This document shows, in pieces, positions 54,008 to 64,000 of a DNA stretch of 64,000 nucleotides. Location: positions 130,857 to 194,856 of the IMG/VR virus record IMGVR_UViG_3300047476_000704; one strand, written 5' to 3'. The notes beneath the pieces were generated by a model. That model ran no database searches. It saw only the letters and a program-made list of their open reading frames with translations, and was not told the DNA's origin. The stretch's first letter is position 1, and each line of letters begins with the position of its first letter. Both the position numbers and the translations under genes were made by a program. The DNA comes from a virus.

Positions 54008-55159
54008 TTAATTATCTTCATTTTTAAAAGGTTTTTCATACTTGGGTTTAATCATACTCCAAATTAAATGGTCGTATGGTTTTTTATCCCACATCTTAAA
54101 CATCACCGCAGATAATTCTTTTGGGAATTGTTTAGTATATTCAGCAAACTCTTTTTTAGTTGGTTCTACTTCCTTATCATTATACTTACCATAACGGAAT
54201 CCATCATGCAACTTACCTGCTCTTTCATCTATTGAGTAGAAACTATATCGCAAGTTCATAACCACTGCTTTCACCCATTTATCAAACTCATCGGGTACTC
54301 TCTCCAAAAATGGTTCTAATGGTTCACCATTCTTCAATAGTTCCCAAATATCTTTGGTAGAAAAATTAGTAAGGATTCTATGTAATCTCACATACTCATC
54401 ACCTTTAATCTTCATTCGCATACCACCTGAAAAACGAATTACATATCCTTCGGAATCATTTGAAATCATTTTTTTCAATTTGGTATAATCATTCACACCA
54501 TCGTATCTATTAACAATATCCCATCCCTCATTCACCATCTCATCAACCTCAACCTCTTTACCGGTTTCGTTATTGTAAGCACCTAACACAACCAATTTTT
54601 CCTCATCACCATAATCTACAACGATTCGATTTTCAGGATAAATGATTTCAACTAAATAAGTGTAGCCAGGTATTAAAGCAGTTTTGCTTAATTTATCTAA
54701 TAACTCCTTACCTTTGATAGCTTGTTCGGATGTAAATGAACCACGAGTTGCCATATGCCACTCACCTTCGTAGTGGAATATAATACCCAACGAACCATCC
54801 ATCTTTTCAAATACTTCAAAGGGCTCATTTGGAATGACACTACGCATTTCCCAACCACCGCATTCTTCAGGGTGAGCACAGTTAATCATACCTGATTTTC
54901 TACACCCTTCACAATGTGCATACTTATCATCTTTAATTTCTTCGTAGTTAAAGAACTTTGGGAATGGTTTGGCAATAACATTACCTTCGTTATCCAATAC
55001 TAAACCTCTACAAGCCAATGTATATCTATCCCAATTACCATCGTATTGTGTGGTGCGGGAATAGTTGTATATAGACAACGGAAGTGTAGGGTGATTTTGT
55101 TTAATCACCTTACCCGTATCAATATAATGTTTATGTAAAAGTTCTAAATTGTATTTCAT
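54008..55159 (-). CDS. RNA ligase (T4 Rnl1-like) with Cys-rich insertion
   Basis: CRGLV..PFPKFFN; EKMDGSLG; EII; EGYVI; KIK..YVRLH. Confidence 0.9.
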   Translation of the reverse strand: MKYNLELLHKHYIDTGKVIKQNHPTLPLSIYNYSRTTQYDGNWDRYTLACRGLVLDNEGNVIAKPFPKFFNYEEIKDDKYAHCEGCRKSGMINCAHPEECGGWEMRSVIPNEPFEVFEKMDGSLGIIFHYEGEWHMATRGSFTSEQAIKGKELLDKLSKTALIPGYTYLVEIIYPENRIVVDYGDEEKLVVLGAYNNETGKEVEVDEMVNEGWDIVNRYDGVNDYTKLKKMISNDSEGYVIRFSGGMRMKIKGDEYVRLHRILTNFSTKDIWELLKNGEPLEPFLERVPDEFDKWVKAVVMNLRYSFYSIDERAGKLHDGFRYGKYNDKEVEPTKKEFAEYTKQFPKELSAVMFKMWDKKPYDHLIWSMIKPKYEKPFKNEDN

Positions 55160-61793: not shown

Positions 61794-62168
61794 TTATAAG
61801 TTAGTAATAAAATAATCTTTAAGTTTTTCCATTGCCCGAACCTTAATCTGCCTAACCCTCTCACGAGTTAATAACAACTCCCTACCTATCTCATCGTAGT
61901 TCATCTCCTCACCATTAGGTAATCCAAAGGATAGCTCAATCACACATCTCTCACGAGGAGTAAGAACCCACTCCATAGCCGAACTCAATTCAATACCCAT
62001 ATCCTCAATCTCTAAACCTCTAAATTCTGATGATTGGGAAGGGAAGGATTCAACCTCCTCCAAACCAACATACTCATACTCTAAATCTCTATGATTAGAT
62101 GGGATGTGGATAACTCCATTTTCAATCTCTTTGTTAATCCGATAAGTGTCTTGTGAGTAACGATTCAT
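61794..62168 (-). CDS. sigma-70 region-4-only HTH protein (start moved past promoter)
   Basis: LTPRERCVIELSFGL..EMNYDEIGRELLLTRERVRQIKVRAMEKLK. Confidence 0.85.
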   Translation of the reverse strand: MNRYSQDTYRINKEIENGVIHIPSNHRDLEYEYVGLEEVESFPSQSSEFRGLEIEDMGIELSSAMEWVLTPRERCVIELSFGLPNGEEMNYDEIGRELLLTRERVRQIKVRAMEKLKDYFITNL

Positions 62169-62200: not shown

Positions 62201-62232
62201 TAAAGGTAGGCATAATATACCACAATGTCAAG
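62201..62232 (-). promoter_or_regulatory. Bacteroidota-type early promoter (sigma4 protein)
   Basis: AAAGA-CTTG-N20-TACCTTTA. Confidence 0.75.
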
Positions 62233-62386
62233 TCTTTTACCAAATTTATTTTTGTTTTCCTGGTTATTTTATAGACCATATAGAAACCCTTAAAAGTGTA
62301 TAGGGTAAAGAGGGTTTAGGATAGCAAAATGAAATTTAGGATGACCACCTAAAATATACCCTTTGGGGTATAATTGTATATTAAAA

Positions 62387-62541
62387 CGAGTCAGGCCCGA
62401 AAACATGGCACCCGTATGAAAGCGTACCCGACTCGGGGGTCCAAGCATGCCTTCGGGCGTGTTACGGGAAATGGAGAGTCTCCATAACGGGGGCAACGCC
62501 TCCGCACGAGCCTACGCTCGGGTAGTTAGATAGTTATCTAA
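62387..62541 (+). ncRNA. candidate structured non-coding RNA (or structured DNA element)
   Basis: About 62% GC by hand count over 62387-62520; six or more stems, a cUUCGg loop, G-U pairs in the + sense, and pseudoknot potential. Confidence 0.5.
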
Positions 62542-62544
62542 TCG

Positions 62545-62775
62545 TTATACGGATTGACGAACGGGTCGTTGGTATTGCTTTAAAGCTTGGGTGACCTCAT
62601 ACTGATGTTGTCTAGCGGAGCGTAGTGTTATCTCGCATTGCTCAGCCAATCCGATGTTCTTCGATGACACCGCTTGTAGGTACATCACAGTGATGTCTTC
62701 TATATCGGTTTGTAGTGCCTGTAGTCTACGCTGGAAGAAGTTCACATCATGTTGGTATTCGGTTAGTGTACTCAT
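62545..62775 (-). CDS. helical hypothetical protein
   Basis: 76-aa ORF. Confidence 0.55.
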   Translation of the reverse strand: MSTLTEYQHDVNFFQRRLQALQTDIEDITVMYLQAVSSKNIGLAEQCEITLRSARQHQYEVTQALKQYQRPVRQSV

Positions 62776-62835
62776 AGTGTATAGGGGTTGAATTTTGTTT
62801 TGCTAAAATAATTTTACCATTGCGGTCCGCAGATG

Positions 62836-63459: not shown

Positions 63460-63533
63460 TGGGTGTAAGGACGGTATCGAACCGTCTTCTCTGGCTCCAC
63501 AAACCAGCGCTTCACCTTAAAGCTTCAAACACC
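63460..63533 (-). tRNA. trnH: tRNA-His (GUG)
   Basis: G-1 GTGTTTG/CTTACAC C73; D-stem GCTT/AAGC; anticodon stem CTGGT/GCCAG, loop TT-GTG-GA; T-arm GACGG-TTCGATA-CCGTC; two U-U pairs in the acceptor stem. Confidence 0.88.
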
Positions 63534-63832: not shown

Positions 63833-64000
63833 TCTTTTCCAAAATATTTTTAAAAAAAATTAAAATATTATTTATCGCCTCCGCACAAGCTGTGCAATCG
63901 TGGACGTGTTGAGCGCACGTTCACGTTCTTTGTTTTATCACATCTACTTAACATAATGTAAATTATATAACGAGAATATATTAGAATAGTACAATTATTG

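Follow-up and report, generated by a model that had tools for sequence, protein, structure and literature searches.

A conserved structured non-coding RNA element directly downstream of a 76-residue protein gene in uncultured large T4-like phages

Organization of the locus

The window analysed here is the terminal 64 kb (64,000 nucleotides) of the 194,856-bp IMG/VR virus record IMGVR_UViG_3300047476_000704 (positions 130,857-194,856). It derives from a phage with a T4-type terminase, and by this protein the closest cultured phages belong to the Flavobacterium phage immuto group (57% identity), with Microcystis phage Mel-JY01 next (54%). About 1.5 kb from the 3' end of the window, which is also the end of the contig, lies a GC-rich element, and all ORFs in its vicinity, irrespective of their length, as well as a tRNA-His gene, are carried by the minus strand. 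Read along that strand, the gene for a 76-amino acid protein is followed by the GC-rich element, which begins at its stop codon, and then by an AU-rich stretch, a 7-bp hairpin, the sequence UUUU, a spacer of about 110 nt, a promoter and a sigma factor gene. In order of minus-strand reading, the parts are as follows:

63461-63532, minus: tRNA-His (ARAGORN), about 0.9 kb upstream of the element
62545-62775, minus: 76-aa gene (from the ORF list), its stop codon abutting or overlapping the element
about 62355-62547, minus: whole structured RNA domain, 170-220 nt in the family
62526-62541, minus: hairpin H1, 6 bp with a 4-nt loop, found in most relatives
62488-62520, minus: variable domain, made up of H2 (62507-62520) and H3 (62488-62504)
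62471-62485, minus: hairpin H4, 6 bp with a 3-nt loop, nearly invariant
62387-62470, minus: conserved core (about 85 nt), in which long-range helices compete (alignment A5, RNAalifold, base-pair probabilities)
62373-62386, minus: AU-rich single-stranded stretch, nearly invariant (A5 columns), preceding the terminal hairpin
62355-62372, minus: terminal hairpin T, 7 bp and then a U-run (terminator scan)
62201-62238, minus: next early promoter (TTG, 20 nt, TAccTTTA), driving the gene at 61794-62168
61794-62168, minus: sigma-70 region-4-only gene (Pfam Sigma70_r4, E 5.6e-16)

A preliminary description, made from the window alone, had put the GC content of the element at about 62%. This value applies to 62387-62520 (61.9%), i.e., without the AT-rich first hairpin, whereas the full stretch 62387-62541 has 57.4%. 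The contrast with an AT-rich background that it had drawn is borne out: the mean for 155-nt windows is 32.2% (standard deviation 4.7%), and 62387-62541 is the highest 155-nt GC peak of the 64-kb window, exceeding even the tRNA region.

Six near-identical early promoters occur on the minus strand of the window, with GACTTG starting at 63834, 63324, 62234, 61531, 59784 and 50726. They read AAAGACTTGACATT, followed by a spacer and TACCTTT(A/G), which amounts to TTG-N20-TAnnTTT, and a conserved leader follows each of them. We take these to be promoters of the -33/-7 type described for Bacteroidota, and on account of this promoter type the host phylum is probably Bacteroidota.

Several further features of the neighborhood recur in relatives. 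In the window and four relatives (L006:954-1026, L036:2302-2372, L051:48-148 and L052:875-945), the 76-aa gene is preceded at a distance of 0.5-1 kb by a tRNA gene of the same orientation, and the order tRNA, small ORFs, 76-aa gene and RNA is retained. The 60 nt upstream of the start of the 76-aa gene (62776-62835 on the minus strand of the window, L002:2940-3000) are conserved at the DNA level between distant relatives. In the annotation of one protein homologue, P0057, the N-terminus is extended across this stretch, which may act as a leader or as a second regulatory element. Likewise, most subtypes carry the short motif UUUUGCUAUCCUA (62300-62325 of the window, minus strand) between the terminal hairpin and the next promoter, even those in which the spacer is otherwise different. 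Further from the element, a gene for a T4 Rnl1-type RNA ligase (54008-55159, minus strand; PF09511, E 9.5e-19) points to RNA-repair functions in the phage.

Conservation and linkage to the 76-residue protein gene

Twelve look-ups of contigs, a relative in IMG/VR and a pattern scan of metagenomes supplied the homologues of the element, giving 19 distinct cores, all of them from uncultured phages (alignment A5); contigs such as L010-L015 and L063-L070 come from freshwater samples. In every recovered contig that reaches far enough past the 76-aa gene, the element lies directly 3' of it. The gene after the element varies between one for a Sigma70_r4 protein, one for an RNA_pol_A_CTD protein and unrelated small ORFs, and this inconstancy indicates that the element belongs with the 76-aa gene and not with the gene that follows. 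In the main lineage, among close relatives, nucleotide identity to the window is 85-88% for the core, 70-74% for the 76-aa gene and 58-83% for the spacer. With a covariance model, each of the two long phage records yields a single copy of the element, and in a related 148-kb record the element is located mid-contig. In the window the position after the element is occupied by the sigma-70 region-4-only gene, and in relatives by an alpha-CTD-like gene (PF03118; L007:3018-3425 and L009:672-1079), the two kinds of gene having the same promoter and leader; they look like swappable RNA polymerase-mimic cassettes.

The distribution of the element is narrow. A blastn search with the element and the surrounding 8 kb against 50,697 phage records returned no relative, IMG/VR contains only one other carrier, and a search of prokaryote genomes for the 3' motif yielded four chance matches, all lacking the element. 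The immuto-group Flavobacterium phages and Microcystis phage Mel-JY01 have neither the RNA, as assessed with the covariance model, nor the 76-aa gene, and a literature search did not find such a motif described.

The core of the element is non-coding. Every frame on both strands runs into stop codons in some homologue, and the variable columns of the core are distributed over the three codon positions as 25/25/21, i.e., without 3-periodicity. Additionally, the 5' domain of the element tolerates indels of arbitrary length. A 68-aa ORF at 62290-62496 on the minus strand was considered as a gene and rejected, as its frame is closed in some homologues and the variation is not 3-periodic.

The 76-aa protein has 71 homologous protein clusters in a collection of 5.8 billion proteins and is predicted (AF2, pLDDT 89) to form a two-helix hairpin, with helices at residues 3-37 and 41-69. 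It matches no Pfam or PHROG family, and its profile has no match in prokaryote genomes; Foldseek with the model recovers generic helical hairpins and nothing specific, and ESM Atlas returns unnamed viral clusters only. Across relatives the ORF ends ahead of, within or past the first hairpin of the element, which accounts for the variable C-termini of the homologues.

Strand, fold and relation to described RNAs

Inspection of the homologues helps to settle a question which the window sequence by itself does not answer, namely that of the strand. Folding of 62380-62545 is better than that of shuffled controls on both strands (-59.5 kcal/mol and z -2.3 on the plus strand, -61.7 kcal/mol and z -3.2 on the minus strand), and the full element reaches z -3.4 on the minus strand. 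The window is an exception when the region from H1 through H4 is compared: its two strands fold with equal energies, and for this reason the asymmetry is invisible from the window alone. Of 18 full-length homologues, 17 reach a lower minimum free energy (MFE) on the gene-sense strand, often by 10-25 kcal/mol, and 12 a lower z-score. In nearly all homologues, G-U pairs number 3-10 in the sense-strand MFE structures of the H1-H4 region and 0-3 in those of the antisense strand, and in the aligned core the ratios of G-U to A-C cells are 5:2 for H4, 26:10 for Pb and 19:4 for Long (core helices defined below). Individual changes follow the same pattern: an H4 pair in the alignment switches between A-U and G-U, H2 gains a G-U in L058, a neighboring hairpin carries a single wobble pair in L041 and three in L043, and a small triloop hairpin of the variable domain exists in four forms, connected through one double and two wobble changes. 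Signals in the opposite sense are A-C oppositions in H1 of L062, H2 of L005 and H3 of the window, and the better folding of the antisense strand in L057. Together, the G-U to A-C balance, the folding energies and the orientation of the genes strongly favor the minus, gene-sense strand as that of the RNA. The preliminary description had placed the RNA on the otherwise silent plus strand on the basis of its G-U pairs, a reading that holds for the window sequence only; across homologues the plus strand gathers A-C mismatches, and wobble pairs are overwhelmingly on the minus strand.

The seven stems of that description can all be read in the window, but their conservation differs widely. H4 is paired in 96.5% of cells, with pair 4/18 being AU in 14 sequences and GU in 5. 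Hairpin T is likewise paired in 96.5% of cells; in the D3 lineage one of its CG pairs has become UA by a double change, and in one lineage its sequence is wholly different with complementarity kept. H1 has a U-G pair in L006, is replaced by a shifted hairpin in L062, is absent from L053 and degenerate in L051; as a whole, it is degenerate or missing in two divergent lineages. The variable domain consists of one to four G/U-rich hairpins that differ in length and sequence between relatives, with the result that the span from H1 through H4 ranges from 57 to 121 nt. The cUUCGg-capped hairpin at 62444-62463 is present in the window, but most relatives have a 7-nt loop there and the divergent lineages an unrelated sequence; similarly, the stem pairing 62387-62395 with 62427-62435 is found in one subtype (with a 3' strand of the UCGGG type) and is not conserved otherwise. 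The U-run after hairpin T lends the end of the element a terminator-like look in this phage; the combination of hairpin and U-run, as in intrinsic terminators, is seen in the window and its closest subtype, and most other subtypes lack the U-run.

The inserted variable-domain hairpins are very G/U-rich, e.g., at L036:1325-1436 (minus strand) and L041:1029-1140, and runs of the kind GG-UU-GG-UU-GGG-U-GG in them could alternatively form a two-tier G-quadruplex. In a 219-kb ENA scaffold (L005:2790-2906), a run of N stands in place of the variable GC-rich part of the element, and may represent a scaffold gap or masking exactly at the hairpin-rich stretch.

Four long-range helices compete within the core, all on the minus strand:

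Pa, 62463-62468 with 62411-62416: the pseudoknot stem of the preliminary description
P2', 62463-62467 with 62422-62426: the choice of RNAalifold across all lineages
Pb, 62453-62458 with 62426-62431: one of its pairs is seen as C-G, U-A and U-G
Long, 62451-62458 with 62395-62402: favored by base-pair probabilities in the main lineage

P2' and Pa have a common 5' strand with two alternative 3' partners, and either of them in combination with Long would cross it to form a pseudoknot; the element was thus fairly called pseudoknot-capable. In divergent lineages the core helices require register shifts, and the core fold is ambiguous. Three candidate structures were scored on 19 distinct but phylogenetically clustered sequences, whose relatedness inflates the shuffle control:

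H4 + P2' + Pb + T: 89% of cells paired; covariation 0.111 versus 0.079 shuffled; reached by 0 of 500 shuffles
H4 + Pa + Pb + T: 87% of cells paired; covariation 0.091 versus 0.072 shuffled; reached by 0 of 500 shuffles
H4 + Long + T: 91% of cells paired; covariation 0.141 versus 0.088 shuffled; reached by 0 of 500 shuffles

Some covariation, for which the preliminary description had proposed to test gathered homologues, is seen, the observed scores exceeding all 500 shuffles for each structure, and slid controls have only 27-54% of cells paired. With just 19 clustered sequences the covariation is modest; it and the pairing scores are suggestive, and an all-against-all scan for covarying columns in the same sequences was too noisy. 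H4, T, H1 (in most lineages) and the variable hairpins located between H1 and H4, one to four in number, are well supported. A further pairing, by which the region of the stop codon and the 3' flank would form a closing stem, looked compensatory between two sequences; it fails in several recombinant subtypes and was discarded.

Rfam 15 (4227 models) was scanned at gathering thresholds and at E<=10. Nothing overlaps the element on either strand, in the window under both settings or in eight homologous loci at E<=10, and matches elsewhere are tRNAs and chance matches only; the Infernal/Rfam check that had been suggested thus yields no described family. ARAGORN reports only the tRNA-His at 63461-63532 and no tRNA- or tmRNA-like domain in the element, and the Rfam tRNA clan is without a match there.

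Comparison with known systems brings out several partial likenesses. Bacterial small RNAs derived from 3'UTRs are known from enterobacteria, e.g., CpxQ, SroC and DapZ. Like these, the element lies on the same strand as an ORF and directly after its stop codon, is linked to that gene, has the 3' end in common with the mRNA, ends in a hairpin and has a core more conserved than the upstream coding sequence. It differs from them in its much greater length (170-220 nt), in its far richer structure (five or more helices) and in being phage-encoded, probably in a Bacteroidota system. Phage T4 encodes the stable RNAs "species 1 and 2", structured non-tRNAs, beside its tRNA genes. The element resembles them as a phage-encoded, structured non-tRNA near a tRNA gene with the same direction of transcription, a likeness that rests on description and not on sequence as species 1 and 2 have no Rfam model, and differs in being attached to the end of a gene for a protein. 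The large RNAs GOLLD, ROOL and HEARO offer a third comparison, being complex-folded non-coding RNAs, apparently independent of proteins, that phages or mobile elements carry and whose conserved core is surrounded by variable peripheral hairpins; the present element is, however, 3-4 times smaller, matches none of their models and is tightly linked to one small protein gene. Finally, in its GC-rich, compact nature and possible crossing helices it recalls HDV-like ribozymes, but no Rfam ribozyme model is matched on either strand at E<=10, and neither a P1.1 pairing nor a catalytic C was identified.

Functional interpretation

The element is a conserved, non-coding and structured RNA with a consistent strand, hairpins that are maintained through compensatory and wobble changes, some covariation, strict linkage to the 76-aa gene and no counterpart in Rfam. 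This agrees with the suggestion of an undescribed phage non-coding RNA in the preliminary description, and the element is best read as a new family of phage structured RNA without a match to described families. As to its role, the reading to which we assign a probability of about one half is that the minus-strand RNA constitutes the 3'-terminal part of an early operon and acts as a stable, 3'UTR-derived, protein-binding non-coding RNA that also shields the mRNA. The element would tail an early operon transcript of which the 76-aa helical-hairpin protein is the last ORF, and would comprise a variable, G/U-rich multi-hairpin 5' domain, a small hairpin, the core of about 85 nt, the AU-rich stretch and the terminal hairpin. 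This domain would persist as a stable RNA, guard the upstream mRNA from 3' exonucleases and bind a protein early in infection, most economically the neighboring 76-aa protein or else a host factor. The binding of the RNA by the 76-aa protein is pure inference.

A more specific and rather improbable version is that the RNA is one half of a new phage ribonucleoprotein with the 76-aa protein, or else a new ribozyme or ligand-binding fold. The RNA of such a ribonucleoprotein would bring together a core of about 85 nt, folded as a pseudoknot, and exchangeable G/U-rich hairpins, and the complex may target host transcription or RNA metabolism early in infection; sigma region-4-like or alpha-CTD-like genes lie beside the element, and the same phage encodes the Rnl1-type RNA ligase. 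At the simpler end, the element could be no more than a long terminator or mRNA stabilizer, which blocks 3' exonucleases, ends the early operon and does nothing in trans. Its position at the end of an operon, its many GC-rich hairpins and the U-run in the window fit such a purely cis-acting 3' end. However, the sequence itself is kept in single-stranded stretches and hairpin loops to a degree above that of the coding gene, most subtypes are without the U-run, and 170-220 nt far exceeds the need of a stabilizer; we therefore hold this to be unlikely, if still deserving of some weight. Control of read-through into the RNA polymerase-modifying genes, in the manner of a riboswitch or of processive antitermination, would make use of the one 5' strand with its alternative partners P2' and Pa and of the terminal hairpin, and sigma region-4 or alpha-CTD-like genes do lie downstream. 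Against this, the downstream gene varies and has a strong promoter of its own in between, the hairpin is no canonical terminator in most relatives, and no conserved antiterminator pairing is seen; such control is improbable. For a riboswitch as such, which the preliminary description had offered as one option, the position is likewise unfavorable, since the element is 3' of a stop codon and about 110 nt, including the promoter of the next gene, precede that gene.

Two further alternatives concern the nature of the molecule itself. A DNA-level element, whether a cluster of protein-binding palindromes, a packaging site or the structured replication origin that had been proposed, would be compatible with H1, H4 and T as perfect, strand-symmetric inverted repeats and with the contig end 1.5 kb away. 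The hairpins, however, survive G-U intermediates, wholesale replacement of their sequence and changes in length, the element is mid-contig in the related 148-kb record, and the strand asymmetry is strong, all of which leave this possibility highly improbable. Hardly credible, in turn, is a plus-strand non-coding RNA or HDV-like self-cleaving ribozyme transcribed from the TATAAT at 62369-62374. In the window sequence it could draw on z -2.3, the UUCG-capped hairpin and two G-U pairs. Yet that loop and its stem are not kept, nor are all the other plus-strand stems invoked for an HDV-like topology, and homologues accumulate A-C mismatches on the strand in question. The TATAAT is indeed present, but it belongs to one arm of a conserved hairpin; no plus-strand promoter is predicted there by the sigma-70 scan, and host-type promoters are not TATAAT-based. 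As for the ribozyme, neither the HDV family nor any other is matched at E<=10, and the preliminary description had itself found neither the catalytic C nor P1.1.

Non-tRNA structured RNAs encoded by phages are rare, and almost none of them is understood. Here, a GC-rich RNA of about 200 nt occurs in a 32%-GC genome and is restricted to a single clade of large T4-like phages that are uncultured and whose promoters point to Bacteroidota hosts. Bacteroidota are not known to possess Hfq or CsrA, and their RNA biology is poorly known. If the element is a mere stabilizer, it would still constitute a clean new family of the Rfam type; if the RNA is expressed, it would provide, together with a small candidate partner protein, a defined RNA with which to study early host takeover.
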